Part shown: positions 36,662-64,000 of the stretch, one piece after another
Numbering within the stretch: the first letter of the stretch is position 1
Layout: every line of letters begins with the position of its first letter
Program-made: the position numbers and the translations under genes
NCBI GenBank assembly: GCA_965205505.1
Contig: CBDBHB010000009.1
Location: 480,001-544,000, forward strand
Length of the DNA stretch: 64,000 nt
From: Acidobacteriota bacterium
Lineage (GTDB): Bacteria > Acidobacteriota > UBA890 > WLXD01
Direction of reading: 5' to 3'
Notes under the pieces: model-generated
The model's database searches: none
Told to the model about the DNA's origin: nothing
What the model saw: the letters and a program-made list of their open reading frames with translations, nothing else

Positions 36662-36725
36662 GGGCCTGGTTACGGCAATACGGTCTGCCGATCGCCCGGC
36701 GCGCTTGACGGGAGATTGGCGTGTG

Positions 36726-36744
36726 TATTAAACGATGTTTAATA
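36726..36744. promoter_or_regulatory. Perfect palindrome TATTAAAC-GAT-GTTTAATA, putative PadR operator over the promoter
   Basis: TTGACG at 36705-36710 upstream; padR ATG at 36769. Confidence 0.7.
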
Positions 36745-36768
36745 AATCAGGAGACCGAAGCGATCCCA

Positions 36769-43324: not shown

Positions 43325-43327
43325 GCC

Positions 43328-48348: not shown

Positions 48349-48541
48349 TCTTTGCTCCTGCAGCGTCGGCAGACGCGCCGAGAATGCGTTTCAGAGTCTT
48401 GATCGGCTCGCTATCGAGCTCCTCGAGTCCGACCTCGACGAGACGTCCGCCGGCATTGCCGGCCCGCTGTCGACGTACGCAGAGTACAAGAGCCTCTGCC
48501 GCCGCGCCCCTGCCAGCTCGTTCGACTCCAGGTAGACTCTT

Positions 48542-49294
48542 GTGATGGCTGAAGACTGCGAAGAGCTCGTGGCGATCATTGCGGCGAGGGAGGACGAGCT
48601 CGTGCCGCTGCGCGAGCGTGTACTAGTTTCCGAGGAAATCAAGGACGGGCCCCGCTACTACGTACGAGGCACGTTGCGCGGCGTGCAGGTCGTACTCGCG
48701 GTGACCGGCGATGGCAAGCGTAACGCCGATCTCGGAATCCGACGGTTGATCCAGGTGTGCGCGCCGACGCGCGTCCTGGCGGTCGGGATGGGAGGTGCGC
48801 TATCGGCGGACCTTGCGGTTGGCGACCTGGTGGTTTCCAGCGAGGTGATGGAGGGAGAACGCACGCTGGCCTGTCCGGATCTGCAGTGGCTGGAGGAGGC
48901 GTCGCTTCATCTGGACTATGACCTCGGGCGGCTGGTTACCGTCGACGAGATACTGGCGACGCCATCCAGCAAGTCGGAGTGGTACGGAAGGACATGGCGC
49001 GATCAGCCCGCTGCCGCTGATATGGAGTCAGCCTGCTTCGCCAGGGTGGCCGTGGCCTACAAGCTTCCATACTTGATCGCGCGGGCTATCAGCGACGCCG
49101 CCAACGAGGTGCTGCCAGACTACCTTGAGGACTGCCGTGCGCAGGACGGCAGCATCGACAAGCGGCAGGTGTTTTGGAAGACAGTCTGGCGACCACGCTC
49201 GTGGGGCAGCATCGTACGCTTGCGCTCGCGCATGCGGCGGTGCGCTAGCACACTGGCCGATTTCGCCGAAGGGCTCGTTGCCGCATTGGCGTAG
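48542..49294 (+). CDS. Nucleoside phosphorylase/nucleosidase, HpnG-like
   Basis: GMGGAL..L.VGDLVV, ADMES, RAISD, C-terminal DG.....WRP helix typical of hopanoid-associated phosphorylases. Confidence 0.75.
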   Translation: MMAEDCEELVAIIAAREDELVPLRERVLVSEEIKDGPRYYVRGTLRGVQVVLAVTGDGKRNADLGIRRLIQVCAPTRVLAVGMGGALSADLAVGDLVVSSEVMEGERTLACPDLQWLEEASLHLDYDLGRLVTVDEILATPSSKSEWYGRTWRDQPAAADMESACFARVAVAYKLPYLIARAISDAANEVLPDYLEDCRAQDGSIDKRQVFWKTVWRPRSWGSIVRLRSRMRRCASTLADFAEGLVAALA

Positions 49295-49341
49295 GTAGCT
49301 ACGTTCCCACCGTTCACGGTGCGCGTCGCCAGTATGCGGCA

Positions 49342-49363
49342 TTGACATGCCCCGAGGTGTCAA
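49342..49363. promoter_or_regulatory. TTGACA-N10-TGTCAA inverted repeat upstream of the mevalonate operon
   Basis: Perfect 6-bp IR whose left arm is a consensus -35. Confidence 0.55.
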
Positions 49364-49471
49364 GGACACTCGGAACCCTACGCCCTCAGTGCGCTGCGCT
49401 GGTCTTGAACGCCGCGCGCCCGCCTCTCGTGCGTCGCTATTGCCGGCGCCGATGCCGCGTTGCGAGTACGC

Positions 49472-50518
49472 ATGAGCAGTACCGATTCACCGGCCGCCAA
49501 GCCACCGGCGGCGCGCGACCGCAAGGCCGAGCACATCCAACTGGCGCTCGAAGAGCGAATGCAACACGGCAGTCGCGGCTTCGATGCCTGGCAGCTCGAG
49601 CATTGCGCGCTTCCCGAGCTCGACCTGGCCGAGGTCGACCTCAGCACCGAATTCCTCGGCAAGCAGCTGATGGCGCCGCTGCTTATCTCCTGCATGACCG
49701 GTGGCACCGCTGACGCGGCCGGGATCAACCGCAACCTGGCAGTCGGGGCCGAGCGTGCGGGTGTTGCGGTTGGCGTGGGGTCGCAGCGCAAGGCGCTGGA
49801 GGATCCTACGCTCCAAGCTACCTTCCAGGTTCGCGAGCACGCCCCCACGGTACCCCTGTTGGCCAATCTGGGTGCGGTGCAACTGAACTGCGGGTACGGC
49901 GTCGCCGAGTGTCGGGCGGCCGTTCGTATGATCGATGCGGACGCTCTCGTGTTGCACCTGAACCCTCTGCAGGAGGCAATTCAGCCCGAGGGCGATGTCA
50001 ACTTCGCCAACCTGTTGCCCAAGATCGAAGCGATTGTTCATCAACTCGAGGTGCCGGTCATCGTCAAGGAGATCGGCATGGGCATATCGCTGTCGGTGGC
50101 CGAGCGGCTCGCCGAAGCCGGCGTCCGTATCATCGACACGGCGGGACATGGGGGCACCAACTGGGCCCGTATCGAAGCACAGCGTGCCGACGATCTCGAG
50201 CTCGGCGCGATGTTCGCCGACTGGGGAATTCCAACGCCCGACAGCATCCGCGCCGTCGCCAGCGTGCCGGGAGTCACCGTTATTGGCAGCGGCGGGGTCC
50301 GTACTGGAATCGACGTGGCCAAGGCGGTAGCGCTCGGCGCTGACATGGTCGGCCTGGCGTATCCGTTCCTCAAAGCGGCCCTGGAGTCGGCCGATGCGGT
50401 GGTGGCGCGGATCGACCGTACTCTGACCGAGCTCAGGGTGTCGATGTTCTGCGCCGGCATCCGTACAATGGCCGATCTGCGTGCGGCGAATCTGACCGAC
50501 CGAGCGCCCCGCCGATGA
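49472..50518 (+). CDS. fni: Type 2 isopentenyl-diphosphate isomerase
   Basis: RKAEHI, MTGG, GVGSQR, HLNPLQEAIQPEGD, VKEIG.G, GGTNW, WGIPT. Confidence 0.95.
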   Translation: MSSTDSPAAKPPAARDRKAEHIQLALEERMQHGSRGFDAWQLEHCALPELDLAEVDLSTEFLGKQLMAPLLISCMTGGTADAAGINRNLAVGAERAGVAVGVGSQRKALEDPTLQATFQVREHAPTVPLLANLGAVQLNCGYGVAECRAAVRMIDADALVLHLNPLQEAIQPEGDVNFANLLPKIEAIVHQLEVPVIVKEIGMGISLSVAERLAEAGVRIIDTAGHGGTNWARIEAQRADDLELGAMFADWGIPTPDSIRAVASVPGVTVIGSGGVRTGIDVAKAVALGADMVGLAYPFLKAALESADAVVARIDRTLTELRVSMFCAGIRTMADLRAANLTDRAPRR

Positions 50519-51762
50519 ACGACACGGCCGAGCCGGTCGACCAGGACGCCCTCGTCGACGAGATTGCAGCCGGTACCCGGCGCTTTCATCAGCTGCCGCC
50601 CGAGCTCAGCGCTGCTGATGCAGCAGCCATTCGACGGCAGGCCCTCGAGCGCCTCGCCGGAGCAACTCTGACACACACCGGCAAGTACTCGTTCGACGCG
50701 ACGCGCGCCGCCGGCAGCCATTGCGAGAATCTGATCGGTGTGACACAGGTGCCGGTCGGCATAGCAGGGCCACTGCTCGTGCGGGGTGATTACGTCGACG
50801 GTGAGGTCTATGTCCCTCTGGCCACGACGGAGGGAGCGCTCGTCGCCAGCATAAACCGAGGCTGTGCGGCCATCCGGGCCGCTGGCGGGGCCACCGTGTA
50901 TGTGGAGGACGTCGGCATGACCCGGGCGCCGGTGTTTCGCTCCAGCGGGCTGGCGCAGACACGTGAATTCCTCCGGTGGGTTACCGACAACGAGGATGAG
51001 ATCCGCTCCGTGGCAGAGGGCACGAGCCGTTTCCTGCAGCTCGTGGATATCCGCCCCTATGCTTTCGGTACCACGATCTTCCTGCGCTTCAGGTTCCGCT
51101 CAGGCGACGCGATGGGAATGAACATGGCAACCATCGCCTGCGATCAGCTAGTACGCGAGCTGATCGAGCCAGCGACCGGCGTGCGTTGCGTCGCTCTTTC
51201 CGGAAACTACTGTACCGACAAGAAGCCCGCAGCGATCAACTTTCAGGAAGGCCGCGGCAAGCGCATACATGCGCAGGTCAGACTCGACGCCGATGTGCTG
51301 GCGCGCCTGAAGACGAGCTCGGCCGAGCTGCTCGAGGTGCAGTACCGCAAGAACCTGCTGGGCTCGATCGCTGCCGGTTCGATAGGTTTCAACGCCCACG
51401 TCGCCAATGTCCTCGCGGCAGTGTTTCTCGCCACTGGGCAGGATCCGGCACACGTAGTGGAAGGGTCGATGGGAATCACCTCCATCGAGCCTGGCGACGA
51501 GGGTGGCGTGGTGGCATCGATGTACCTGCCTGCTGTCCCGCTGGCGGCGATCGGCGGTGGTACTGCGCTCGATACGCAACGCGAGGCGCTCGCTTTGCTC
51601 GGCGTCGCGCCGGAGCCGGACCGGCCTGGCGTCGCGGTGTTGCGATTGGCCGAGATCCTCGGCGCCGCCGTTCTCGCAGGCGAGCTGTCGCTGCTGGCCG
51701 CCCTTACCTCTCAGGACCTCGCCGGCGCCCACAAGCGGCTGGGGCGCGCCCAGGCCGGCTAG
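50515..51762 (+). CDS. hmgA: HMG-CoA reductase, class I (NADPH, archaeal/eukaryote-like)
   Basis: CENLIG, PLATTEGALVAS, GDAMGMNM, GNYCTDKK, GQDPAH, GELSLL..H. Confidence 0.93.
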   Translation: MNDTAEPVDQDALVDEIAAGTRRFHQLPPELSAADAAAIRRQALERLAGATLTHTGKYSFDATRAAGSHCENLIGVTQVPVGIAGPLLVRGDYVDGEVYVPLATTEGALVASINRGCAAIRAAGGATVYVEDVGMTRAPVFRSSGLAQTREFLRWVTDNEDEIRSVAEGTSRFLQLVDIRPYAFGTTIFLRFRFRSGDAMGMNMATIACDQLVRELIEPATGVRCVALSGNYCTDKKPAAINFQEGRGKRIHAQVRLDADVLARLKTSSAELLEVQYRKNLLGSIAAGSIGFNAHVANVLAAVFLATGQDPAHVVEGSMGITSIEPGDEGGVVASMYLPAVPLAAIGGGTALDTQREALALLGVAPEPDRPGVAVLRLAEILGAAVLAGELSLLAALTSQDLAGAHKRLGRAQAG

Positions 51763-51774
51763 GCGGTCACACCG

Positions 51775-52893
51775 ATGGATGCAGCGCGGTCGCTCGAACG
51801 GCGCTTGCTAGCACGCGTTTCAGTGCCTGGAAAGCTCATCCTCATGGGTGAACATGCCGTCGTCTACGGTCGACCGGCGCTGGTGGCCGCCACCAGCCTG
51901 CGCCTACGGATCGACCTGTACCGCAGCCACCGGGCCGGCGTGGAAGTGGAGCTGCCGGAGCTCCAGTACCAAGACCATGTCTCGTGGCAGGAGATCCTGC
52001 GTTATGCGAGCCGAATGCGGCAACGGTGGGAACGCTACGATGCGAGCCCGACGCCCGAGGTGTTCGCTAGCCTTCAGGACGACCGCGCCGACCGGCTGGT
52101 GCTGCTCGCACTGGGCGAGGCCATCACGGCGCTGGGTGAGGATCCGGGCGCGAAGGGCCATCCGCTGAGCGCGCTGCGGCTTCGGGTGGACTCGGCGGTG
52201 CCGATGCAGGCCGGCTTCGGGAGCTCCGCCGCCATCGCTGTGGCGGTGGTGACGGCGGTTTGTGCGCTCTTCGGCCGGGCGGAGAGGTGGTCGCTGATCG
52301 GGCCGATCGCGGGCGAGGTGGAGCGCCGGCAGCATGGCGCGCCGTCTGGTGTAGACGTCGCGACCGTGTTTCACGGCGGCATGTTGCGCGCCCGCCGCGC
52401 CGGCGAAGAGCTATCGATCGAGCCGCTGGCGGCGCGCCCTGACACCCTGCGGCGGCTGCGCCTCTTCGATACGGGTCGCTCGGCCGAGCCGACCGGCACG
52501 GTGGTCGCGGCAGTACGAGCACAGCATGACCTTCACCCAGGCAGCTTCGAGGAGTCGTTGGACGCCGCCGAAACCGCAACCCTGGCCTTCCAGGCTGCGG
52601 TTACCGCCTCGGCCGACCGGATCGACTTAGTGCCACCGATCCGCGATGCTCAGCGCTACCTGGAGTCTCTCGGGGTGGTGCCCGAGCCAGTATGCGACGC
52701 TGTCCGCGCTATCGAAGCGCTGGGTGGCGCTGCCAAAATCTCTGGTTCGGGTTCGCTCGCAGGTCCAGGGGCCGGGTCCTTGTTGGTACTGCTGCCGGAT
52801 GGCATCGAGAATCTCCCCGAGCCGCTGGCGAGGTTTCCGGAGCACGAAGTGTCGCTGGGCGCCGAGGGTGTGTGGGTAGAGGTGGTGTCATGA
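51775..52893 (+). CDS. mvk: Mevalonate kinase
   Basis: PGKLILMGEHAVVYG, PMQAGFGSSAA, HGAPSGVD, AKISGSG. Confidence 0.9.
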   Translation: MDAARSLERRLLARVSVPGKLILMGEHAVVYGRPALVAATSLRLRIDLYRSHRAGVEVELPELQYQDHVSWQEILRYASRMRQRWERYDASPTPEVFASLQDDRADRLVLLALGEAITALGEDPGAKGHPLSALRLRVDSAVPMQAGFGSSAAIAVAVVTAVCALFGRAERWSLIGPIAGEVERRQHGAPSGVDVATVFHGGMLRARRAGEELSIEPLAARPDTLRRLRLFDTGRSAEPTGTVVAAVRAQHDLHPGSFEESLDAAETATLAFQAAVTASADRIDLVPPIRDAQRYLESLGVVPEPVCDAVRAIEALGGAAKISGSGSLAGPGAGSLLVLLPDGIENLPEPLARFPEHEVSLGAEGVWVEVVS

Positions 52894-53915
52894 GTCGCAG
52901 CGCCACCGTCGAAGCACCTTCCAATATTGCGTTTGTGAAGTACTGGGGTGCCGCTGACCTGGAGAAGGCCATCCCACTCAACGCCTCGATCTCGATGTCG
53001 TTGCGGGCGTGCGTTACAAGGACGAGCGTCGAGACGCTCGCGGCCGGCGCCGACGACGAGATCTGGATATGTGTCGAGGGTCAATGGCGTCGCGCCGAAG
53101 GGGCGTTCGAGCATCGCGCCGCAGCGCATCTGGAGGGTATGCGGCGCTGGGCCAAAGTCGACGTGGGTTTTAGGGTTGCCACGGAGAACAGCTTTCCCGC
53201 CGCCGCCGGTATTGCCTCGTCGGCTTCCGGCTTTGCGGCACTTACCATGGCAGTGCTGGCGGCGCTCGAGCGAGAGCCGGCGGGCGATGAGCTATCGAAT
53301 CTGGCGCGGTTGTCTGGCTCGGGCTCCGCATCGCGGTCGGTTTTCGGCGGCTACGTGCAGTGGCCGCACGGCGACGAGGCGGACCCGTGGCGCGCCGCGC
53401 CGCTGGCGACAGCCTCGCATTGGGACCTGCGCGACGTAATCGCCATTGTGCAGACCGGTCCCAAGGCAGTGTCGTCTCTCGAGGGGCACGCCGGTGCCAC
53501 CACCAGCCCCCATTTCGCGCGCCGGCAGGAGCTGATCCCGTCGCGACTTCAACGGGTGCGCGACGCCATCGCGGCGCGCGACCTGGACCGACTCGGTCCG
53601 GTCGTCGAAGAAGACGCAATTGAGCTCCACCTGGTAGCGATGTCCTCGCAGCCCCCGATCTTCTACTGGCGGCCGGCGACGCTTCGCGTGCTGGACCATG
53701 TTCGCGTTCTGCGCAACGGCGGCACGTCGGCGTGGGCAACGATGGACGCCGGGGCGAACGTGCATGTGATTTGCTCTGCCGATGACGAGGAGGACGTCGC
53801 CGCCGGGCTGGAGGCGCTGGATGGTGTCCAAGCCGTGATCCGCGACGGCGTGGGCTCGGGCCCGCGGGCCCTGCCGGTATCGTTGTTCGACGCTCTCGAT
53901 CGAGCGCGACCGTGA
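52890..53915 (+). CDS. mvaD: MvaD-family decarboxylase, probably phosphomevalonate decarboxylase
   Basis: NIAFVKYWG, NSFP.AAGIASSASG, GSGSASRS, VSS, TMDAGANVH; substrate inferred from the adjacent IPK. Confidence 0.88.
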   Translation: MSRSATVEAPSNIAFVKYWGAADLEKAIPLNASISMSLRACVTRTSVETLAAGADDEIWICVEGQWRRAEGAFEHRAAAHLEGMRRWAKVDVGFRVATENSFPAAAGIASSASGFAALTMAVLAALEREPAGDELSNLARLSGSGSASRSVFGGYVQWPHGDEADPWRAAPLATASHWDLRDVIAIVQTGPKAVSSLEGHAGATTSPHFARRQELIPSRLQRVRDAIAARDLDRLGPVVEEDAIELHLVAMSSQPPIFYWRPATLRVLDHVRVLRNGGTSAWATMDAGANVHVICSADDEEDVAAGLEALDGVQAVIRDGVGSGPRALPVSLFDALDRARP

Positions 53916-54712
53916 ACGATCTGGTGGTGATCAAGCTGGGCGGCAGCTTGATCACCCACAAGCGCCGCCATCGAACGGTAAGGCGGGCTGAGCTTTCGCG
54001 ACTCGCCGGCGAGATCGCGGCGCTGACCCGCGGCTCTCGATTCCCGGTGCTGCTAGGGCACGGCAGCGGGTCCTTCGGGCACGTCGCGGCAGCGCAGTCG
54101 GGCGTCCATGAGGGGATGGCCGGGCGTGGCGCGCGGGTCGGTGTTTCGCAGACGCAGGCTGCCGCTTCCGAGCTGCACGCGATTGTCATGAGCGCTCTGC
54201 GTGAGGCCGGCGTGGCTGCCTACTCGGTGGCTCCGTCGAGCGCCATTGTTGCCCGAGGCCCCGGTCTTCGGCCGAGCGTGCACCTGGAGCCAGTGCGGCG
54301 AGCGCTCGACAGTGGACTGCTACCCGTTATGTATGGCGACATCGTCATGGACCGGCAACGTGGCTGTTCGATCTGCTCCACCGAAACGGCACTGCTTGCA
54401 TTCGCTCGCTCGCTAGGCTCGTCGAATCGGTGTGTCTCCGATGCCATCTGGCTCGGAGACACCGACGGCATTCTTGATGGAGATGGGGTGAGCGTTGCTC
54501 GCGTCCGCTTGCGAGATGCCAGGCGCGTCCGTCGCCTGGTGAGCGGCGCGGCCGCGACCGATGTGACCGGCGGCATGCGCCATCGCCTCGAGGCTGCGTT
54601 GGCGCTAGCCCGCATCGGCGTGCGGTCCTATCTGCTCGATGGCCGTCGGCCGGGCATCCTGCGACGTGCGCTGCGAGGCGCCACGGTGCCGGGGACGATC
54701 GTCGAGCCCTGA
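53912..54712 (+). CDS. ipk: Isopentenyl phosphate kinase
   Basis: KLGGSLIT.K, HGSGSFGH signature histidine, GDIV, STE, DVTGGM. Confidence 0.88.
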   Translation: MNDLVVIKLGGSLITHKRRHRTVRRAELSRLAGEIAALTRGSRFPVLLGHGSGSFGHVAAAQSGVHEGMAGRGARVGVSQTQAAASELHAIVMSALREAGVAAYSVAPSSAIVARGPGLRPSVHLEPVRRALDSGLLPVMYGDIVMDRQRGCSICSTETALLAFARSLGSSNRCVSDAIWLGDTDGILDGDGVSVARVRLRDARRVRRLVSGAAATDVTGGMRHRLEAALALARIGVRSYLLDGRRPGILRRALRGATVPGTIVEP

Positions 54713-54793
54713 GCAGCGGCGGCTTTCGTCGCCTGGGCCGCGCCGCCGCCAAGGTGGATAATGGTCCTCGGCCAGCCAAAGCCAGGCGCACGC

Positions 54794-55714
54794 ATGGACC
54801 GCATCGAAGACCTTCTCGAGAAGACCAGCCGCACGTTCGCGCTATCGATCCCGTTGCTGCCGGAGCCGACCCGCCGCGAGCTCGGGATCGCCTACCTGCT
54901 ATTCCGCATTGCGGACACCTTCGAGGATGCGTCCGAATGGGGCCGACAGCGGCGGATCGATGCCCTCGAGGAGTTCATGAGCCTGGTTCGACATCCAGAC
55001 GAGCAGCGAGCCGCGAAGCTCGGACGCAGCTGGGCCACTTCCGTACCGATTGATCATCCCGGCTATCTCGAGCTACTCCGCGAATCGGCAACCGTGATCC
55101 GGGAGTACCAGCGTCTGCAGCCTGGCGCACGGGGGATCATCCGCAAGCACACGTTGCGGACCGCTGCCGGCATGGCCGGATTCGTCAATCGCTCTGTCGA
55201 TGGTGTGCTCAAGCTCGAGTCTCTAGCTGACCTACGCGAGTATTGTTACGTGGTTGCCGGTATTGTCGGTGAGCTCAGCACCGACTTGTTCCTTCTCGAG
55301 CGCCCGCAGCTGGCGTCGTCGATCGAGTTCTTGCAACAGCGCGCTGCGCGGTTTGGTGAGGCGCTGCAGCTGGTCAACATCCTCAAGGATGCTGCCGACG
55401 ACCGGCGTGAGGGGCGGTGTTACCTGCCCGCGGCGCTGAAGCGCAGGGAGATCTTCCGGTTGGCCCATGAAGATCTCCGAGTAGCGGCGCACTACACCAA
55501 CGCACTGCAGGCGGCGAGCGCGCCGCGCGGCATCATCGCGTTCTGCGCCCTGCCGACACGGCTTGCCGTCGTTGCCCTCGACGTCGTCGAGCGATGCGGG
55601 CCCGGCGCAAAGATCTCCCGCGAAGAGGTTGCCGAGATCGTCCAGGCCATGAACCTAGATCTCGAGGCCGGTGCTCCAGCGGTGCCGATTCCAGCAACCG
55701 CGAAACCGACGTGA
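54794..55714 (+). CDS. Squalene synthase-like head-to-head prenyltransferase
   Basis: TSRTFALSI, YLLFRIADTFED, YCYVVAGIVGE, LQLVNILKD..D..EGRCYLP. Confidence 0.88.
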   Translation: MDRIEDLLEKTSRTFALSIPLLPEPTRRELGIAYLLFRIADTFEDASEWGRQRRIDALEEFMSLVRHPDEQRAAKLGRSWATSVPIDHPGYLELLRESATVIREYQRLQPGARGIIRKHTLRTAAGMAGFVNRSVDGVLKLESLADLREYCYVVAGIVGELSTDLFLLERPQLASSIEFLQQRAARFGEALQLVNILKDAADDRREGRCYLPAALKRREIFRLAHEDLRVAAHYTNALQAASAPRGIIAFCALPTRLAVVALDVVERCGPGAKISREEVAEIVQAMNLDLEAGAPAVPIPATAKPT

Positions 55715-55743
55715 CCAAGCCGGCGGCTGGCGCGGTTGCGAGA

Positions 55744-56565
55744 TCATTTTCCGGCGCCTTCGGGGTTAGCTCTCGTGGCGCGGTCGATCCAGGCGTCGGC
55801 GTCCGGATGGCCGCGTTGCTGCCATTCCCGGGCTCGATCGATGGTCCGCCGATAAGCGTCGCGGCTTGCCGCGTCGTCTTCGACTTCGGCGTAGGCCTCG
55901 GCTAGCGCGAGGAGGTTTGGCGGGTACTCGGGGTAGAGCTCGACGGCCCGTTGCGCCTGCTCCAGGCCCTCGTCCGCGTTGCCGGGACCGGTGGGCCAAC
56001 CGGGCGCTTGCACCAGCATCTGCGATAGCACGCGTCGGGGTCCGGCGTAGTCGAGGCGTTCGTGCCCGGCGATGGCAGCGCGGAGCTCGCGTTCCATTAT
56101 GCGTAGCCCGTCCGAAGCCGTGGCGCGACGCTGGTTGGCTTGTACGCCGATGGCGATCGCCAGCCAGTAATGACAGTCCGGGTTTGTTGGCTCCCGTCTT
56201 CGACACCACTGGGCTGTTTGCACTGCCTCGGTGGCCTTGTCCCTGCGTGCCTGCGGATCGTCCAGATGCTCCCCAAGCCAGGTCTGTGCCCTCACGGCAC
56301 CGATGACTGCCAGCGCGCTGGACGGACGGGCGATGGCAGATCGGATCCAAAGAGCCTCGGCCTGGCGCACCGCGTCGACATTGGGGCGTCGCCCGAATTC
56401 TCCCTCGGCGTCGGCCGCCAGACGGGCAGCCTCCTGCGCGTCGACGCGTTCCGGATCGACGTGGCCGAGCGCCGAACTCGTGTCAAGCGGCTGGAGTGCA
56501 GCGGCACACGCGGACGAAGTAAGGGCTGCGGCAGCTAGCAAGGCGGCGCCACGACGAAGCCTCAT
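55744..56565 (-). CDS. TPR-like lipoprotein (TatT/BstC-like)
   Basis: Lipobox TSSAC; helical repeats, HYWLAIAIG, DYAGPRRVL..L.QAPGWP. Confidence 0.7.
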   Translation of the reverse strand: MRLRRGAALLAAAALTSSACAAALQPLDTSSALGHVDPERVDAQEAARLAADAEGEFGRRPNVDAVRQAEALWIRSAIARPSSALAVIGAVRAQTWLGEHLDDPQARRDKATEAVQTAQWCRRREPTNPDCHYWLAIAIGVQANQRRATASDGLRIMERELRAAIAGHERLDYAGPRRVLSQMLVQAPGWPTGPGNADEGLEQAQRAVELYPEYPPNLLALAEAYAEVEDDAASRDAYRRTIDRAREWQQRGHPDADAWIDRATRANPEGAGK

Positions 56566-57455
56566 TGAGCCGCCGAGTATGCCGCCCGGGCAAGGCCCAG
56601 CGCCTCAGCGTCCAGGGCTTCGAAGCGCTGTAGCTGCATGGTTTCGAGCACGTCAGCGAAGCTCGCCGACTCGTGGACACCGAGTAGCCCCTTGACCAGC
56701 TGCTGGCGCACCGGCTCGGGGACGCGGTCGCCCAGGGCGACGACGAGCCAGGCCAAGAGAGGCGGCGACGTTGCCACCACCTCGAGCGACTCCGCGCCCG
56801 GAAACGAAGCCAACGCGGCGGTCTGGGGGCCATCGAGAAGTACGGCAACTTCCTCGCCGGCGGCCACTCGGCGTATGCCGGCAAGCACCCGCCGCGTGAA
56901 CTTGACCGAAAGCGAATCCGGGAGCGCTCCCCAATCCGCCAGCGCCGGCCCGCGTACGAAACTGGGTGCGTATGCCGGAAGCCCTAATAGCTCCCAGCCA
57001 GCGAGCGACTCGGGCCCGGTGATCACCCCGGCGGAAGCCACCAGGCTCCAACGCTCGGTAGCGCTCCCGGACGCCTGCACCGCCTGCGCCACCGCGGTGA
57101 GCGCCAGCTCCTGCTCGTACTTCAGATACAAGGGCAGTGGCACCAGCGCCAACGACGTGGCGTTGTCGCGTAGACGACTCACCCCGGCTTCCTCGCTCGG
57201 ATGGTATTCGGCCGTCAAGGTCCCTGCCGGCCACCCGGAGGCGTCCGAGACCATCGCCGCGAAATCGTTCATCGTCGGCTGCGCCTGCTCGGTGTTGCTC
57301 GGATACCCTGGCGCGCAGGCCACCAGCCGCAGAGTGTCCAGGCCGGCGAATGCGCCACCCCGACTCCCGCCGCCGGCCGGCGGTACAGTTGCCGTCGTTG
57401 CAAACAGCGCCACCGCGAAGAGAAGCTTGTTCATCGTCGGCGCGGATCCGTTCAC
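56562..57455 (-). CDS. Periplasmic substrate-binding protein (PhnD-like/BstB-like)
   Basis: Signal peptide; LVACAPGYP.., two alpha/beta lobes; stop overlaps the start of the downstream lipoprotein (ATGA). Confidence 0.65.
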   Translation of the reverse strand: MNGSAPTMNKLLFAVALFATTATVPPAGGGSRGGAFAGLDTLRLVACAPGYPSNTEQAQPTMNDFAAMVSDASGWPAGTLTAEYHPSEEAGVSRLRDNATSLALVPLPLYLKYEQELALTAVAQAVQASGSATERWSLVASAGVITGPESLAGWELLGLPAYAPSFVRGPALADWGALPDSLSVKFTRRVLAGIRRVAAGEEVAVLLDGPQTAALASFPGAESLEVVATSPPLLAWLVVALGDRVPEPVRQQLVKGLLGVHESASFADVLETMQLQRFEALDAEALGLARAAYSAAQ

Positions 57456-57502
57456 CTGTGGCGAAGGTTGTCAGTAGTCTTCGAAAGAATACCCGCGACC
57501 CT

Positions 57503-60196
57503 TCAGCGGCGCGCGATCCCGCTCACGATCAGCAGGTTCGGCAGCACGATCAAGGCGGCGATCGTGCAAGCGCCGACCCCCAGCAACAGCAGGGCCCCGA
57601 GGCTCGCCATGCCACGATGTGTAGCGAACACGAGGCTCCCGAATCCCACCATGGTCGTAAGCGAAGCGATGAGGATCGCCCGCCCGGTATGCGAAACGAC
57701 CGTCATGATGCCGGCGCTGCCCTCCAGTCGCAGTCGGTGGATGATGTGGACTCCGGCATCGATGCCAACACCCAGGACGATCGGTACCGCCACCAGGTTG
57801 GCGAAATTGAACGACAGGCCGAGTGCCCACATGAGTCCGAGCATCCATACCGTCCCGAAGAAGACGGGTACGAGTGCCAGGGCCGTGTGTTGCGTGTTAC
57901 GCAGATCCAGTAGCAACACCAGGAACACGAGCAACGCGGCGCTCGCGAATGCTAGCCCGAACCCCGAGGTGATCAAGGCAGAATGGCTCTCGAAAAGCAC
58001 CGGAAAGCCGATGGCATTGCTGGCGACGCGGCGCGACGCGACGTTGAACTGTCCCAGGAAGCCGGTGTCATAGATGTCGCCCGCCGGGAACAGATAGCCG
58101 ACGTATCGACCGTCCTCGGTCATGAACCGATCGACGATCTCGGAAGGCAAGGATGCGCGGGTCGGGAGCGGCACGCTGGCGGCGTCGCGCAGCTGCTGTA
58201 GGGCGCTGAACGCCACGACGCGCAGCGCCTCCTGCGCTTCGGCCCACTCGGCGAGCCTCTCCGGGCTCGCCGCCATCGCTAGCTCGATGGCTCCTGCGGT
58301 CGCCTGACGGGCCTTCTCCAGGGCTCCGGACACCCCTCCCAGCCCGGCAACGAATGCGTCGTCGGCGGCGGTGGCGAGGGCAGACTCGAGTCGCAACAGC
58401 GAGTCACTCAGTCGGCGCCCGTCGAACGCGGCCACGGTCAGCTCGATGACTTCCAGAGTCCTACGGGCGCGCGCCGCGGCGGCCTCCGACGCGAGCGGTT
58501 GATCGGGCAGGAATGTGAGTATCGATTCGAACCGACGGATGCTGGCCTCGTCCTCGGCGCGCGAGCGTAGCGCGCGGAGCTGCTCCAGATCCTCGGCGAC
58601 GACGAGGTTGAAGTCGTGGCTGAGCGCCGACTCGTCGTTGATGATCTCCAGATAATGGATTGACTCGGAACCTGCCGGGAGAAGCTCTAGCAGGCTCGGC
58701 TCCAGCTCCACGCGGCTCGCTGCGAGCCCGGCGATCGCGGTCAGGCCGATCGCCAGCGCGACGACGAGGCCCGGTGACGCGCAGACCCAACGGGCCGCCC
58801 GATCGTCCCAGATCTGGTCAACGGCGGCACGCGCTGCCGCGTTGTCGTGTTCGGGGGCACCGCGCAACAGCAGCAGTGCCGGTAGCACTAGCAGGGCGGC
58901 AAGCAGGCACAGCAGCACGCCGACGCTGGTAACCAGGCCCAGCTGGGAAAAACCACGAAAATCCATGAGCAGCAGACAGGCGAACGCGGCCGAGGTGGTG
59001 AACGCAGACGCGACGACCGCGGCACTCGTCGTTCGAAGCGTGGCGCGCACGGCCTCCCGGCGACCCTTGTTCTGCCGTTCGAGCTCGTACTGCGATAGGG
59101 GGTGCACTGCGTAGTCGATACCCATGCCGACGAGAATGGGGATCAGTGCCGTGGTGATGATGTTGAGCGACCCGATCTCCAGCTGCACCGCGCCAATCGA
59201 CCAGGTGACTCCGGCCGCCAGGGTCGCCAGGCCGAGCAGAGCGTGGCGTCGCCGGCGGAACACCAGCAACGAGATTCCGAGCACGCCGACGATGGCGATC
59301 AACGAGGTGCGGCGGGTGTCCCGTCCTATGGCATTCATCTCTTCCACGGCCATCGCGGCCGGGCCGGTGAGTCCATAGCGAACGCCTGCACGCTCCGACA
59401 ACACGGCCGCGACGGCCACCCGGACGCTATCCACCAGCGCCCGCTGAGCTTCCAGGCTGTCATCGAAATACGCAGGGCTGACCAGTACGAACACGACACG
59501 CTCATCGCTGGTCGACAGGTAGCCATCGCCGGTCAACGATCCGCGCCGCCCGCTGTCTATCAGCATTAGCGGCACCTGCTTCAGCCGATCGACAAACCCA
59601 TGAGGATCGGTGAGGAAGTCGCGCTCGGCGTCGACGAGGTCGAGCAGCCAGGCGGCCGCTACGGCGGCATCGTCGGACGGCAAGACACTGCCTGATTCGA
59701 GCGAATCCTCGATGTCAGTGGCGCTGCGCAGGTTCAGATCGGCCCAGCTCGTCAGGATCAGCTTGCCGTCGACGGCAAGTAGCCGCTGCACCATCTCGAA
59801 CGCTTGTTCGACCATGTCCGCCGGTGCCAGGGCAAGCGCATGATCGGCAAGCCAATCGAAGTCGACGCGGTAGAACACGCTACGTACCTGCGGGTCCGCT
59901 TGCAGGTGCTCGGCGATCTCGCGTGCTGTGGTTTCCAGGTCCTCGACCGATACGCCGCTTGCGCTTGCTTCCAGCGCGATAATGAGCGGCTCGGCGCTGG
60001 CGAACTGTGAGCGCAGCGAGTTCCATCGCGCCTGGCTCACGTCATCTTCCGGCACCAGCTCTTGTCGGGAGGTCAGAAGCTCGATTCCCGTCCCCAGCCA
60101 AATGGAGATCGCGCCCAGCGCTAGAGCGACGGTAAGCACGGCGCGTGGATGGTCCAGAACCAGCGACTCGGCGCGCCTGAGCACAAGGCGTATCAT
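57503..60196 (-). CDS. MMPL/RND lipid transporter (HpnN/BstA-like)
   Basis: 897 aa, two MMPL halves: LTG, ILVGMGIDYAVH, FSQLG, IVLGVGIDAGVH, TTMVGFGSL..HRGMASLG. Confidence 0.9.
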   Translation of the reverse strand: MIRLVLRRAESLVLDHPRAVLTVALALGAISIWLGTGIELLTSRQELVPEDDVSQARWNSLRSQFASAEPLIIALEASASGVSVEDLETTAREIAEHLQADPQVRSVFYRVDFDWLADHALALAPADMVEQAFEMVQRLLAVDGKLILTSWADLNLRSATDIEDSLESGSVLPSDDAAVAAAWLLDLVDAERDFLTDPHGFVDRLKQVPLMLIDSGRRGSLTGDGYLSTSDERVVFVLVSPAYFDDSLEAQRALVDSVRVAVAAVLSERAGVRYGLTGPAAMAVEEMNAIGRDTRRTSLIAIVGVLGISLLVFRRRRHALLGLATLAAGVTWSIGAVQLEIGSLNIITTALIPILVGMGIDYAVHPLSQYELERQNKGRREAVRATLRTTSAAVVASAFTTSAAFACLLLMDFRGFSQLGLVTSVGVLLCLLAALLVLPALLLLRGAPEHDNAAARAAVDQIWDDRAARWVCASPGLVVALAIGLTAIAGLAASRVELEPSLLELLPAGSESIHYLEIINDESALSHDFNLVVAEDLEQLRALRSRAEDEASIRRFESILTFLPDQPLASEAAAARARRTLEVIELTVAAFDGRRLSDSLLRLESALATAADDAFVAGLGGVSGALEKARQATAGAIELAMAASPERLAEWAEAQEALRVVAFSALQQLRDAASVPLPTRASLPSEIVDRFMTEDGRYVGYLFPAGDIYDTGFLGQFNVASRRVASNAIGFPVLFESHSALITSGFGLAFASAALLVFLVLLLDLRNTQHTALALVPVFFGTVWMLGLMWALGLSFNFANLVAVPIVLGVGIDAGVHIIHRLRLEGSAGIMTVVSHTGRAILIASLTTMVGFGSLVFATHRGMASLGALLLLGVGACTIAALIVLPNLLIVSGIARR

Positions 60197-60326: not shown

Positions 60327-61286
60327 GTGAAGTCACTGATCCTGACCCAGTCCGATATTCACTCCGTGGTGAAGATGAGCGCCGTAGTGCCCGCGATCGA
60401 GGCAGCGTTCGAAGCGCACGGGCGCGGCGAAACGCAAATGCCGGTCAAGGTCTACCTCGATCTACCTGAGTACCACGGCGACTTCCGGGCCATGCCCGCC
60501 TACCTGGACGGATCGGCGGGGGTGAAGTGGGTCAACTCGCACCCGCGGAACCCGGAGGACCACGGGTTGCCATCGGTTCTCGGCATGTACATTCTCAGCG
60601 ACCCGTCCACTGCTGTGCCGTTGGCGGTCATGGATGCAACGCTGCTGACCGCGCTGCGCACCGGCGCGGCTGCGGCTGTCGCCGCCAAGCACCTGGCGCG
60701 GCCGGATGCCCGCACCGTCGGCTTCGTCGGCTGTGGCGTGCAGGCGCGTGCGCTGCTCGACGCACTACGCGTTGTTTTCGGCAATCTACAGATCGTGGCT
60801 GCCGATCAACACCCCGACGCGGCTGCTACTTTTGCCGCTGAGATTGGCGGAACTGTCGGCGACGTGGCGGATGCGTCAGGCTGCGACATCGTCTGCACCG
60901 CAACCCCTTCGCGCACACCGATCGTGCGTCACGAGTGGGTTAAGCCGGGCACACACATCAATGCCGTGGGTGCCGATGCGCACGGCAAACAGGAGCTCGA
61001 GTCGAGCCTGATGACGGCCGCCAAGGTGGTCATTGACGACTGGCAGCAGGCCTGTGAGAGCGGCGAGGTGAACGTGCCCTTGCACGAAGGCTCGCTTGCT
61101 CGAGACGACATTCACGCCGCCCTGGGGGAGATTGTTGCGGGGTTGGCGCCGGGCCGCGAGACGGATGACGAGATTACGGTATTCGATTCCACCGGGCTCG
61201 CCGTGCAAGACGTCGCGTTGGCACGCCTGGTATACGAACAAGCCCGCGCCGCCGAGGTCGGTCTGGAGGTCGATTTTCTCGGCTAA
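60327..61286 (+). CDS. Ornithine cyclodeaminase/mu-crystallin family (archaeal alanine dehydrogenase-like)
   Basis: GDFRAMPA, GVKWVNSHP.N, TALRTGAA, GCGVQA, FDSTGLAVQD. Confidence 0.9.
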   Translation: MKSLILTQSDIHSVVKMSAVVPAIEAAFEAHGRGETQMPVKVYLDLPEYHGDFRAMPAYLDGSAGVKWVNSHPRNPEDHGLPSVLGMYILSDPSTAVPLAVMDATLLTALRTGAAAAVAAKHLARPDARTVGFVGCGVQARALLDALRVVFGNLQIVAADQHPDAAATFAAEIGGTVGDVADASGCDIVCTATPSRTPIVRHEWVKPGTHINAVGADAHGKQELESSLMTAAKVVIDDWQQACESGEVNVPLHEGSLARDDIHAALGEIVAGLAPGRETDDEITVFDSTGLAVQDVALARLVYEQARAAEVGLEVDFLG

Positions 61287-61307
61287 CAGGCCGTGGTGAA
61301 AGTGTGG
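61283..61307 (+). repeat. Solo family B terminus CTAACAGGCCGTGGTGAAAGTGTGG overlapping the TAA stop
   Basis: Two mismatches to 36636-36660. Confidence 0.75.
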
Positions 61308-61361
61308 TGGGGGCCGGCCGTACAGGTGGACCCGGCGCGTACCCATACGAGTGAAGGAGCG

Positions 61362-62492
61362 ATGGCCATGAAAACGCGCGGATTTCAACCGACCAGCCGG
61401 TGGTTTGCCCTGTTGCTGCTCGTCGCCACGGCATGCGGGCCGACGACCGTCGCTGCTCCGGCAGCGATGCAGTACGCGCAGCTGCATCACTCCGAGTACG
61501 GAGCCGCCATCGAGGCTGCGCGCGCTGTTGTTCAGGAGCGCCTGCTCGAGTACCCCGGACTGTCGATCGCCGTTGGAATCGACGACCGGATCGTCTGGGC
61601 AGAGGGATTCGGCTGGGCCGATATCGAGCAGCGTGTTCCGGTGCGACCCACGTCTCGGTTTCGCGTCGGCAGCGTCGCCAAGCCGATGACCGCGTCGCTT
61701 CTCGGCCTGCTCTACGAGGAAGGCAAGATCGATCTCGACGCGCCGGTGCAGACGTACGTGCGGACGTTTCCAGAGAAGAGCCACCCGATCTCTACGCGCC
61801 TGCTCGCCGAGCACCTGGCCGGCATTCGCGACTACGAAGGCGACGAGTTCCTCAGTGCCGTTCGCTACGACACCGTGTCGGATGGGCTGGAAATCTTCGC
61901 TGCCGACCCGTTGCGGTTCGAGCCGAGCACCGAGTACTTGTACTCGAGCTACGGATGGAACCTGATCAGCGCCATCATCGAGGGTGAGAGCGGCGAGGAG
62001 TTTCTATCGCAAATGCAGAGCCGCGTATTCGAGCCGCTCGGCATGCTCGACACAACTTCGGATCAGAATGCCTTGATTGTCCGCGAGCGGGTACGACCTT
62101 ATGAGCGCGGGGATGACGGACTCCTGTACAACGCCCCTCATGTCGACAACAGCTACAAGTGGGCCGGCGGGGGCTTTCTCTCTACTGCACAGGACCTCGT
62201 GCGCTTCGGTATGGCGCACATGAAGCCCGGCTTCTTGCAGATGGCGACCCTGCAGGAGTGGCAGACGTCGCAGCGAACGAACGATGGCGTGGAGACCGGC
62301 TACGGAATGGGTTGGAGCGTTGGCACGGACGCGTCGGGCCGCCGAAGCGTCGGTCACGGCGGCGGCTCGGTGGGTGGAACCACCGGGCTCATGCTGCTGC
62401 CGGATGACTGCTTGGTGATTGCCATCACCAGCAACATGAGCGGCGCGCCAGGTTTTCCCACTCAGGAAATCGTCGATCTGTTCCTGCAGTAG
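61362..62492 (+). CDS. Serine hydrolase, beta-lactamase family lipoprotein
   Basis: GAAGGAG RBS; lipobox VATAC; SVAK (SxxK), YSS, HGG. Confidence 0.9.
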   Translation: MAMKTRGFQPTSRWFALLLLVATACGPTTVAAPAAMQYAQLHHSEYGAAIEAARAVVQERLLEYPGLSIAVGIDDRIVWAEGFGWADIEQRVPVRPTSRFRVGSVAKPMTASLLGLLYEEGKIDLDAPVQTYVRTFPEKSHPISTRLLAEHLAGIRDYEGDEFLSAVRYDTVSDGLEIFAADPLRFEPSTEYLYSSYGWNLISAIIEGESGEEFLSQMQSRVFEPLGMLDTTSDQNALIVRERVRPYERGDDGLLYNAPHVDNSYKWAGGGFLSTAQDLVRFGMAHMKPGFLQMATLQEWQTSQRTNDGVETGYGMGWSVGTDASGRRSVGHGGGSVGGTTGLMLLPDDCLVIAITSNMSGAPGFPTQEIVDLFLQ

Positions 62493-62656
62493 CCGCCGCG
62501 ATCATGGCTGATCCCGAGGTCGGCTACGTCGTTCCGGCAGAAAATGCTGGAAAAACAGCAAATGCTCTTGATCGTCTCCGCGAAAATGCTAGATTTGCAG
62601 CAGTTTCAGCGCGCCATCGAGCGCGCACCCGCCCGATTCCCCTCGTGGCTTTCAGC

Positions 62657-63043
62657 GTGGCCGGCCGATCTCACGACCATTTGACGCGGCGCGAGCGTCA
62701 GATCATGGACGTCGTCTTTCGAACGGGGAGCGCCACGGCCGCGGAGATCCACGCGGAGATGCCGGATCCGCCGAGCTACTCTGCCGTGCGCGCCGCCCTT
62801 CGGGTGCTCGAGCAGAAGGGGCACCTGCGCCACGAACGTCGCAGTCATCACTACGTGTTCTGGCCAACCGTCTCGCGGCGCTCGGCGCAGCAGGATGCGG
62901 CACGCCGGCTGCTGACGACGTTCTTCGAGGGTTCCGCGAGCGGTGCGGTGGCGGCGCTGCTCGAGTGTGCCGACGATCTCCCTGACGAGGAGATCGAGGA
63001 ACTGCGAAAGATGATCGCCGTGGCGCGGCGCGAGGGTCGCTGA
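62657..63043 (+). CDS. BlaI/MecI/CopY family repressor (start approximate)
   Basis: LTRRERQIMD, PSYSAVRAALRVLEQKG, TFFEGS. Confidence 0.9.
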   Translation: MAGRSHDHLTRRERQIMDVVFRTGSATAAEIHAEMPDPPSYSAVRAALRVLEQKGHLRHERRSHHYVFWPTVSRRSAQQDAARRLLTTFFEGSASGAVAALLECADDLPDEEIEELRKMIAVARREGR

Positions 63044-63044
63044 G

Positions 63045-64000
63045 ATGTTCCTGCTGGCCGATCTGACCGTCAAGGCAACGGTGGTGCTGGCTACCACTGC
63101 TGGTATCGTCTGGGCGATGCGTCGCAGCTCGTCCGGAGCCCGAGCTTTGGTCTGGAGCTGCGGGATCGTGGCGGTACTGGCGCTGCCGGTGGTGTCGGCG
63201 CTGGTTCCAGCCTGGCAGATTCCGCTGCTCCCGGCGTCGGCGATCGCGAGCCCGTCAGCCGGCCCACTGGCGGCAGTGCCGCCCGGGGAGGCATCGCGCT
63301 TGCAGAAGCCTCCCGAGCTGTTGAGGGCGACGCTACATGGTGCCGGCGAAGCGCTTCGGCCCGATACCCCATCGGAGCCCGCACGGCGCGCCGCACTGAT
63401 TGGCCTGCGTGCTACCGGCGTGGACGGAGCACCGCCAACCGAGGGTGAGCAGGCACATCGCGGAGAGCTCCTTCTGGTGGCGTGGGCCACCGGCGCCGTA
63501 CTGCTGCTTGGGCAGCTGCTTGCTGGGCTCGCTCGAGTCGCCTGGATCGATCGCCGGGCTTGCCCGGTGACCAACGGGCCACTCCACTCGCGTCTGCGCA
63601 GTGCGGCGCGGCGCCTCGGCATCCGGCAGCGCGTGATCTTGCTCGAGAGCGACGCGATCGCGGTACCGGTGACCTGGCAGCTATTCCATCCGCGTGTGCT
63701 CGTGCCGCGTGGAATGCAGAGCTGGTCCGCGGACTGTCAGACCGCTGTGCTGTTGCACGAGCTCGCGCACGTGCGTCGCCGCGACTACGGCACGCAGCTG
63801 GCCGCGCATCTTGCCGTCACGCTCTACTGGTTCAACCCCTTGGTCTGGCTGGCGCGCCGCGGCCTGTACAGCGAGCGCGAGCACGCCTGCGACGACGCCG
63901 TGCTACACGCCGGTGTCAGACCGTCGACGTACGCCGCCCATCTTGTCGAGGTGGCGCGGTCGGTGCGACAGGACCCGCAGCCGAGCGTCGCCATCGCGCT
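63045..64000 (+). CDS. M56 family metallopeptidase (BlaR1-like), partial, runs off the right edge
   Basis: ATG 63045, TM segments, in-frame LLHELAHVRRRD, YWFNPLVW, EREHACDD. Confidence 0.9.
   Translation, partial: MFLLADLTVKATVVLATTAGIVWAMRRSSSGARALVWSCGIVAVLALPVVSALVPAWQIPLLPASAIASPSAGPLAAVPPGEASRLQKPPELLRATLHGAGEALRPDTPSEPARRAALIGLRATGVDGAPPTEGEQAHRGELLLVAWATGAVLLLGQLLAGLARVAWIDRRACPVTNGPLHSRLRSAARRLGIRQRVILLESDAIAVPVTWQLFHPRVLVPRGMQSWSADCQTAVLLHELAHVRRRDYGTQLAAHLAVTLYWFNPLVWLARRGLYSEREHACDDAVLHAGVRPSTYAAHLVEVARSVRQDPQPSVAIA

Follow-up and report, generated by a model that had tools for sequence, protein, structure and literature searches.

A 64,000-nucleotide stretch of the genome of a soil acidobacterium (the window, throughout) contains two converging operons that an original prediction, made from the sequence, had named a candidate locus for triterpenoid synthesis and export. 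The window is positions 480001-544000 of contig 9 in an assembly of 5.98 Mb and 9 contigs, estimated to be 96.3% complete. This genome is referred to as G000, and G001-G009 are among its relatives in a sample of 61 genomes from the phylum. On the plus strand, an hpnG-like gene is followed by fni, the genes for 3-hydroxy-3-methylglutaryl-CoA (HMG-CoA) reductase, mevalonate kinase (mvk), a decarboxylase and isopentenyl phosphate kinase (ipk), and finally sqs, a gene of the squalene synthase type. Converging on sqs from the minus strand are genes for a BstC-like lipoprotein, a BstB-like binding protein and an MMPL/RND transporter (Table 1).

Gene calls were based on a list of open reading frames and on Pfam and NCBIfam profile scans of the window proteins, and these recovered all the genes that had been named, in the same order and at the same coordinates. 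The stop codons of the two operons, at 55714 and 55744, are separated by 29 bp, as predicted. Four-base overlaps between fni and the HMG-CoA reductase gene, mvk and the decarboxylase gene, the decarboxylase gene and ipk, and bstB and bstC are consistent with two closely spaced sets of cotranscribed genes. A consensus scan of the locus for promoter-like and terminator-like sites gave no excess over shuffled sequence. Also as predicted, the window has no cyclase, HMG-CoA synthase or farnesyl diphosphate (FPP) synthase; HMG-CoA synthase and FPP synthase (324.7 bits, over its cut-off) are encoded elsewhere on contig 9.

Table 1. Genes and features of the locus, with profile scores and, where given, model cut-offs
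Feature	Coordinates	Strand	Evidence
Possible hpnA relic	48374..48529	+	weak tblastn match to HpnA
HpnG-like PNP/UDP-family nucleosidase, first operon gene	48542..49294	+	PF01048 85.5 bits
Type-2 isopentenyl-diphosphate isomerase (fni)	49460..50518	+	TIGR02151 396 bits (cut-off 281)
Class I NADPH HMG-CoA reductase	50515..51762	+	PF00368 385 bits; TIGR00533 444.4 bits (cut-off 441.8)
Mevalonate kinase	51775..52893	+	TIGR00549 132 bits (below cut-off 163); GHMP_kinases_N 52.5 bits
Mevalonate-phosphate decarboxylase (probable phosphomevalonate decarboxylase)	52890..53915	+	TIGR01240 220 bits (cut-off 171)
Isopentenyl phosphate kinase	53912..54712	+	NF040647 153 bits (cut-off 120)
Squalene-synthase-type (FDFT1-like) head-to-head prenyl synthase	54761..55714	+	PF00494 129 bits
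BstC-like helical-repeat outer-membrane lipoprotein	55744..56565	-	NF045602 81 bits (cut-off 350)
BstB-like periplasmic substrate-binding protein	56562..57455	-	PF12974 42 bits; NF045601 65 bits (cut-off 350)
RND/MMPL inner-membrane transporter, HpnN/BstA-like	57503..60196	-	TIGR03480 372 bits; NF045600 350 bits
Ornithine cyclodeaminase / archaeal-type alanine dehydrogenase family gene	60327..61286	+	PF02423 325 bits

A predicted three-part exporter related to BstABC and HpnN

We compared the exporter proteins with solved structures by sequence comparison to the PDB (threshold E 0.01). The BstB-like protein has a single match, BstB itself (7T1M, E 3.7e-9), and the BstC-like protein also has just one, BstC (7T1S, E 9e-16). 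With these as the sole solved matches of the two small proteins, the idea that the exporter is a real homologue of BstABC is supported. The closest solved relatives of the RND protein are HpnN structures (6WU0 and 5KHN, E ~1e-44, residues 235-888). Against profile models it scores 372.5 bits with HpnN TIGR03480 (residues 229-889, cut-off 751.85), 233 bits with NF052374, also an HpnN model (cut-off 1100), and 350 bits with BstA NF045600 (residues 13-887, cut-off 1400); judged by these scores, it is about equally like HpnN and BstA. The genome has no close paralogue of it. Because the scores of all three exporter proteins lie so far under the equivalog cut-offs, we regard the system as a distant branch rather than an orthologue of BstABC.

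The likelier start of bstB is the ATG at 57434, and the hydrophobic leader of the protein begins at Met8. The BstC-like protein has a lipoprotein-type leader ending in LTSSAC at Cys20, a residue that at least 90% of 17 aligned relatives share; in the same set, C121, C131 and a stretch reading APGWPxGPG do not vary. A much more distant trio of RND, BstB-like and BstC-like proteins is found in another family of the phylum, f8 (G031, L044 2513-7642; G049, L045 3804-11146). Over their full length its members are 24-29% identical to those of the window, and the BstC-like match reaches about 40% over 74-78 residues only.

A probable squalene synthase

The sqs gene is the only SQS_PSY gene in the genome. 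Its product (SQS) scores higher on TIGR01559, the model for eukaryote-type squalene synthase (94 bits, cut-off of 287 not reached), than on HpnD, HpnC or CrtB, all of them below cut-off. Its best solved relatives are likewise eukaryote-type squalene synthases, aligned over residues 18-235, whereas the dehydrosqualene synthase CrtM and phytoene synthase align at 152-232 only. The protein contains D52-T-F-E-D56 and D210-A-A-D-D214, which we take to be the catalytic Asp-rich motifs.

An orthologue is also the sole SQS_PSY gene in G005 and G008, the two relatives that carry a squalene-hopene cyclase (SHC), and it is therefore the only visible source of squalene for the cyclase there. This single-copy pattern is the best indirect evidence that the enzyme makes squalene.

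Isoprenoid precursors come from the mevalonate route

The original prediction had coupled the precursor route to a lipid exporter. A role of the mevalonate genes as a dedicated feeder of triterpenoid synthesis was not borne out. The prediction had also called for a search for methylerythritol phosphate (MEP) pathway genes, and in the whole genome dxs gave sub-threshold, transketolase-like matches only and ispH no match at all. This leaves the mevalonate route as the genome's sole source of isoprenoid precursors, and therefore as a housekeeping pathway, not one reserved for triterpenoids. The same holds across the taxonomic family of the window: ispH is found in 0 of its 11 genomes in the phylum sample, although 44 of all 61 genomes and 12 of the 15 from the sister family have it, while HMG-CoA reductase is present in 9 of the 11 and in 17 of 61 overall (both totals include one unpublished genome, G047). 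Family f8 also lacks ispH (0 of 2), with HMG-CoA reductase in one of its two genomes. In G029, from another family, an HMG-CoA reductase gene lies about 3 kb from an SQS gene of the same type (C85:45877-50766); that genome has ispH, and a BstB-like gene was not found in it.

The precise form of the pathway depends on the decarboxylase, which starts with the ATG at 52890, in an ATGA overlap with the mvk stop codon. Its best solved relative is 6N0X (E 1.4e-62, 215 bits), described in PMC9254496 as the phosphomevalonate decarboxylase (PMD) of Anaerolinea thermophila; diphosphomevalonate decarboxylases reach 154 bits at most. The MvaD model NF040704 gives 153 bits (cut-off 475). The five GHMP kinases of the genome are mevalonate kinase, the decarboxylase, homoserine kinase (ThrB), a heptose-kinase-like protein and GalK, so that no GHMP-type phosphomevalonate kinase is present; the animal-type family of this enzyme was not searched for. 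Given this and 6N0X as the best relative, the route most likely runs from mevalonate kinase through PMD to isopentenyl phosphate kinase (IPK), with the type-2 isomerase.

A PMD and IPK variant of the mevalonate pathway is known from Chloroflexota and haloarchaea. Its gene set (HMG-CoA reductase, mevalonate kinase, decarboxylase and IPK) is complete here, and the likeness extends to a decarboxylase closest to PMD, an IPK over its cut-off, the type-2 isomerase and the failure to find a GHMP-type phosphomevalonate kinase. The difference is that in this acidobacterial family it is the only route and shares one operon with squalene synthase. The pathway, which had been described as "archaeal-style", is better named for the Chloroflexota and haloarchaeal variant.

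Sister genera carry a cyclase at the head of the operon

A search for shc and hpnH had been suggested by the original prediction, and neither was found. No triterpene cyclase exceeded its cut-off in a profile search of the genome (the best PF13243 score was 22 bits). With tblastn, the SHC of the family itself gave no match at E 1e-4 or better, HpnH of G005 none at E <=1e-4, and a second HpnH query only a generic radical-SAM match. Two proteins of 420-435 amino acids weakly match (22-26 bits) the final repeats of triterpene cyclases, and neither has a Pfam hit at E 1e-5; the matches lie at G000:C8:1121771-1121983 (L001 1468-2775, -) and G000:C9:1747092-1747298 (L002 484-1746, +), and each of the four remaining genomes of the genus has similar ones.

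Full-length cyclases (E < 1e-100) are present in 9 of the 61 genomes. Two of these, G005 and G008, belong to the 11 genomes of the family; G006, G007, G009 and the four other genomes of the window genus have none. In G008, genes for SHC (737 bits), HpnH (362), HpnA (469), the PNP-family nucleosidase and fni follow one another on one strand, the shc region being on a separate contig that overlaps the head of the operon. G005 has SHC (670), HpnH (373), hpnA fragments, the PNP gene and fni, after which the remaining cluster genes converge on bstCBA; its hpnA (L127 1110-2562) is in three fragments around an IS481-family transposase gene, with shc and hpnH intact upstream of hpnG. Two further Acidobacteriota share the order, G038 with shc-hpnH-hpnA-PNP and G033 with shc-hpnA-PNP. 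The presence of these genes ahead of the PNP gene in relatives implies that the first gene of the window operon sits at the hpnG position. With shc-hpnH(-hpnA) as the operon head in G005 and G008, the view that this locus belongs to triterpenoid biology is well supported.

The linkage of the two operons, whose conservation had been proposed as a check, is itself conserved in all five genera of the family. A search with the BstB-like protein found it in 9 of the 10 further genomes of the family and in none of the 15 from the sister family. The full order, in which the genes from PNP to sqs meet a convergent bstC-bstB-bstA with the ornithine cyclodeaminase-family gene beyond it, is found in G001-G005 and G007, and contig edges end it in G008 and G009. 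In G006 an insert of 8 kb, with an OmpA-family gene and a Ser/Thr kinase gene, separates sqs from bstC. The original prediction had named two findings that together would speak against it: lack of a cyclase, which is what we see, and operons unlinked in relatives, where we see the reverse.

The first gene and the spacer upstream of it

The hpnG-like protein scores similarly on the HpnG model (89.7 bits, cut-off 187) and on the MtnN model (92.2 bits, cut-off 169), and its gene holds the hpnG position by synteny with G008, G005, G033 and G038. We considered whether it could be the sole nucleosidase of the cell and rejected this, as the genome has five further PNP_UDP_1 genes. Orthology with the PNP-like genes of the sister family was also rejected, as tblastn found nothing in those loci at E 1e-6 or better.

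Just 316 bp lie between a DUF1499 gene and the hpnG-like gene, contiguously assembled, at the site where the sister genera have shc-hpnH-hpnA. Genes for FIST and DUF1499 proteins flank the locus in G000, G005, G006 and G007. Part of this spacer resembles hpnA: residues 32-80 of the G008 protein match it with 19 of 49 positions identical (E 7e-4), and residues 38-88 of the G038 protein match the same stretch, 48374-48529 (E 0.046), the E-values referring to a search space of 16.5 kb. HpnA of G033 gave no tblastn match. The stretch is collinear, on the operon strand and about 150 bp long, just upstream of 48542; the similarity is weak, and we consider it a possible relic of hpnA. No relics of shc or hpnH were detected by tblastn in the spacer upstream of hpnG. 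In G007 (L129 840-10324), hpnG directly adjoins a sulfotransferase gene that is read in two frames, and four transposase genes come after it. The sulfotransferase gene occupies the place that shc-hpnH-hpnA have in G005 and G008, and in both of those genomes a sulfotransferase gene neighbors shc.

Probable loss of the operon head and selection on the remainder

Because sister genera have shc-hpnH-hpnA at its head, the operon looks like a hopanoid supercluster without that head. A tree of ten cluster proteins places the two cyclase holders on one side and the three genera that lack the enzyme on the other (support 100/99), which amounts to one change. To polarize this change, an rpoB species tree was considered and abandoned, since rpoB was not found in G005 and G008, and the cluster proteins were used in its place. 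When the tree of the BstABC-like proteins is rooted on four other Acidobacteriota, G005 and then G008 form a basal grade (support 74/88 and 75/89), implying loss. Synteny also favors loss, because the gene at the hpnG position is kept in all cyclase-less genomes. We therefore consider it fairly likely that shc-hpnH-hpnA were lost rather than gained. A supercluster of precursor genes, SQS, side-chain genes and exporter would then probably have shed its cyclase, hpnH and hpnA in the window genus; the opposite history, in which the two cyclase-bearing genera acquired these genes later, may still apply.

What is left of the cluster is not free to drift. In pairwise comparisons of the window genome with its four genus relatives, at synonymous divergences (dS) of 0.2-1.1, ratios of nonsynonymous to synonymous substitution (dN/dS) were 0.12-0.20 for sqs, 0.19-0.22 for bstA, 0.19-0.32 for bstB, 0.12-0.16 for bstC and 0.04-0.10 for the hpnG-like gene, next to 0.08-0.20 for the mevalonate genes. 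Thus sqs, the exporter and the hpnG-like gene stay under purifying selection in a genus that has no cyclase.

The wider family of BstB and BstC

Relatives were collected with a pattern built from 9 close sequences and limited to one genome per species; 205 of the 216 stretches obtained encode relatives, and the locus counts below are based on the best 80 of the 205. These loci come from Acidobacteriota, Myxococcota, Steroidobacteraceae and other Gammaproteobacteria, Binatia and NC10. A bstC gene follows bstB in 76 of the 80, and a BstA-like gene (at least 42% identity) is present in 11. An unbiased clustering of neighbors across the 80 loci revealed no other widely shared gene. Families that do recur as neighbors in several lineages include SHC, HpnH, HpnA-like and HpnL-like proteins, DXP synthase and a carotenoid-synthesis protein.

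By tblastn, a gene for SHC, HpnH or an SQS-family protein is in the flank of 13 of the 80 loci (9 of the 45 loci of at least 18 kb), five of the 13 belonging to the family of the window. Outside that family, such a gene lies within 10 kb in 8 of 75 loci, SHC itself in 6. Whole genomes were searched for a cyclase for 50 of these 75 loci (25 were dropped, mostly Steroidobacteraceae and Gammaproteobacteria, plus one genome's second locus), and one was found at E <=1e-20 in 33 of 50, including two unpublished genomes, G086 and G109. In the phylum sample, an SQS_PSY gene is present in 14 of 14 genomes with a BstB-like gene (E <=1e-10), compared with 22 of 47 others. We also noted an acidobacterium with hopanoid genes, G027 (L046 7634-14025), in which shc has a BstB-like match within about 2 kb, though a very weak one (27% identity, E 2e-5), and an HpnN-like RND gene at a distance of about 3 kb.

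A proposed route for an isoprenoid lipid, and its alternatives

These observations suggest a reading in which squalene or a derivative, made by the plus-strand operon, is moved to the outer membrane by a BstABC/HpnN-type exporter; we give it an even chance. The operon would be the only supply of isopentenyl diphosphate and dimethylallyl diphosphate in the cell, and its last enzyme, squalene synthase, would draw on FPP from the unlinked FPP synthase. A proton-driven RND pump would take the neutral isoprenoid lipid from the inner membrane, the periplasmic binding protein would carry it, and the outer-membrane lipoprotein would receive it; this would involve outward transport and contacts among the three proteins. 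The window genus and two others would have lost shc, hpnH and hpnA and kept the remainder under selection, and the product here would be squalene itself, or a derivative from enzymes not recognized as such, exported to the outer membrane. Since the operon of the sister genera starts with shc-hpnH-hpnA, the cargo there should be hopanoids.

Several observations weigh against this proposal. The three exporter proteins and SQS all score far below the NCBIfam equivalog cut-offs, and the sole pointer to the cargo is gene neighborhood. Strong conservation of the hpnG-like gene where hpnH is missing is puzzling if the proposal is correct. The trees do not settle loss versus gain, one in which the cyclase holders form a single clade not being rejected (p-AU 0.153). 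Both bstB of G002 and the end of bstA in G003 occupy two reading frames, through decay or assembly error. In the wider family, no hopanoid or squalene gene was found within 10 kb in 67 of the 75 outside loci, and no cyclase in 17 of the 50 genomes searched; 14 of these 17 carry an SQS_PSY gene and three do not. The module is accordingly not strictly tied to triterpenoids. Within the phylum sample, seven strong cyclase holders lack a BstB-like gene, and the support from co-occurrence is modest because the 14 BstB-positive genomes come from four families only.

The counts from the wider family equally bear on the strongest alternative, in which the exporter carries something unrelated to the adjacent operon (for example a different lipid of the envelope, a quinone or polyprenol, or a lipid taken up from outside) and the synteny is inherited from a hopanoid-making ancestor. 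The scarcity of nearby triterpenoid genes and the genomes with the pair and without a cyclase fit such a cargo, as do the rarity of a BstA-like RND gene at these loci, implying that the pair can work in other settings, and the report in PMC11713862 that TatT, a distant relative of BstC, binds fatty acids. However, convergence with sqs has been kept over five genera, while the exporter proteins have diverged to 45-58% identity; every BstB-positive genome of the phylum sample has the capacity for squalene synthesis; and the nearest characterized relatives carry sterols and hopanoids. On balance we find this alternative rather unlikely, though a serious contender.

It is less probable still that squalene is an intermediate and that a different end product, for instance a C30 carotenoid-like pigment or the product of a non-canonical cyclase, is exported. 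Candidates for such enzymes exist, namely several CrtI/CrtO-like flavoproteins (CrtO 205-310 bits, crtI_fam 84-136 bits, all under cut-off) and the two proteins with a weak cyclase-repeat match that is the same across the genus. The CrtI-family genes, however, stand among genes of amine and acyl-CoA metabolism and not among carotenoid genes, and the cyclase-like proteins have no recognizable Pfam family; at 420-435 amino acids they are too short for a two-domain triterpene cyclase. As a separate observation, a linalool dehydratase/isomerase-family gene (264 bits; G000:C6:305564-307210; L182 10564-12210, +) has a CrtI-family flavoprotein, an alcohol dehydrogenase and an AMP-binding enzyme as neighbors.

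Two further explanations have little to recommend them. An ordinary hopanoid producer with shc and hpnH in the unassembled 4% is very improbable: a completeness of 96.3% in nine contigs leaves some room for it, but the site at which the sister genera carry these genes is contiguous here, tblastn with the family's SHC and HpnH found nothing, and the genus relatives, G006, G007 and G009 lack a full cyclase too. It is just as hard to credit that sqs, the hpnG-like gene and the exporter genes are in decay and no longer serve any function. The possible frame breaks in G002 and G003 would fit such decay, but all the genes are intact here, and their dN/dS (0.04-0.32, with dS reaching about 1) agrees with that of the essential mevalonate genes.

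Neighboring genes

The ornithine cyclodeaminase-family gene is a conserved, divergent neighbor of the RND gene and adjoins bstA in G001-G007. Beyond it, at 61293-63998 (+), a serine beta-lactamase-family gene is followed by genes for a BlaI-like repressor and for a sensor of the BlaR1/M56 type, the latter cut off by the end of the window. Elsewhere the window has three large duplicated genes for MacB/FtsX-type permeases, at 26639-29332 (-), 36721-39812 (+) and 40657-43675 (-). Two of the three come after small PadR regulators; the third consists of two open reading frames (42386-43324 and 40657-42438) and may be split or frameshifted.

Discussion

The exporter has its nearest described counterpart in BstABC of Methylococcus capsulatus (PMC10942540), which matches it part by part and in gene order, with an MMPL/RND protein, a periplasmic binding protein of the PhnD fold and a lipoprotein made of helical repeats. 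Both systems adjoin genes of triterpenoid synthesis. They differ in that the window proteins fall far below the Bst family cut-offs (350/1400, 65/350 and 81/350 bits), and in that the window genome has no oxidosqualene cyclase, its system standing beside a mevalonate-SQS operon that has shc-hpnH in sister genera. BstABC is described from methanotrophs, with sequence clusters for BstB and BstC of 16 and 13 members in the accounts given by PMC10942540 and PMC11713862, compared with 205 relatives from several phyla for the branch represented in the window.

The comparison with HpnN, known from Burkholderia multivorans (5KHN/5KHS) and Rhodopseudomonas palustris, is similarly mixed. HpnN is the best solved relative of the RND protein, and in the sister genera the pump is in one locus with shc and hpnH. 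The window protein is nevertheless under the cut-offs of the HpnN models, its first 230 residues fit the BstA model and not HpnN, and its genome has no hopanoid cyclase. It is also paired with BstB-like and BstC-like proteins, whereas a 2025 preprint proposes HpnM, HpnS and HpnT as the partners of HpnN in Proteobacteria (PMC12324291). The main text of that preprint does not contain the terms phosphonate, tetratricopeptide or PhnD, and "Bst" appears there only in a reference DOI, although its large tables could bear on the point; its text supplement has none of these exporter terms.

The original prediction held that the combination of genes was undescribed, and this needs qualification. Sinninghe Damste et al. 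(2017, PMC5462960) report that the subdivision 22 acidobacterium "Mor1" lacks MEP genes and has mevalonate genes, a gene resembling squalene synthase, and both shc and hpnH. Its gene content is thus the same as in G005 and G008, with an SQS-type gene replacing hpnCDE, and to this extent the combination was known; the window genus differs in having neither shc nor hpnH. The same paper describes squalene-competent subdivision 6 Acidobacteria without shc. These share with the window genus the genes for squalene synthesis in the absence of shc; they use hpnCDE and the MEP pathway, and a linked exporter is not described there. The word "transporter" does not occur in PMC5462960. As far as these sources go, the link to an exporter and the cyclase-less state of the locus stand as undescribed. 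What appears to be new is that the operon is coupled to a BstABC-like system in a conserved way and that the exporter is kept where there is no cyclase; also new is the breadth of the BstB/BstC family, with a recurring though partial association with hopanoid genes.

Transport of neutral isoprenoid lipids, hopanoids among them, across the periplasm has so far a single established component, HpnN, the HpnM, HpnS and HpnT proposal being confined to Proteobacteria. The locus ties a BstABC-type system, so far one of methanotrophs and sterols, to a squalene and hopanoid operon in Acidobacteriota, and the BstB/BstC module is far more widespread than reported. The family of the window is also a clear case of a whole bacterial family dependent on the PMD/IPK form of the mevalonate route instead of the MEP pathway. 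We suggest, tentatively and with real doubt, that BstB/BstC-like pairs, together with an HpnN/BstA-like pump at the loci that have one, form a general periplasmic route for neutral triterpenoids in diderm bacteria, and that in the window genus squalene itself reaches the outer membrane. If so, BstB and BstC would be the missing periplasmic and outer-membrane partners of hopanoid transport outside Proteobacteria, and uncyclized squalene would be a structural lipid of the outer membrane, delivered by a route retained after loss of the cyclase. The cyclase-less genera lend themselves to comparison with their sisters, since this exporter and squalene synthase occur both with and without hopanoid synthesis, so that squalene as a trafficked bacterial membrane lipid becomes a testable idea.

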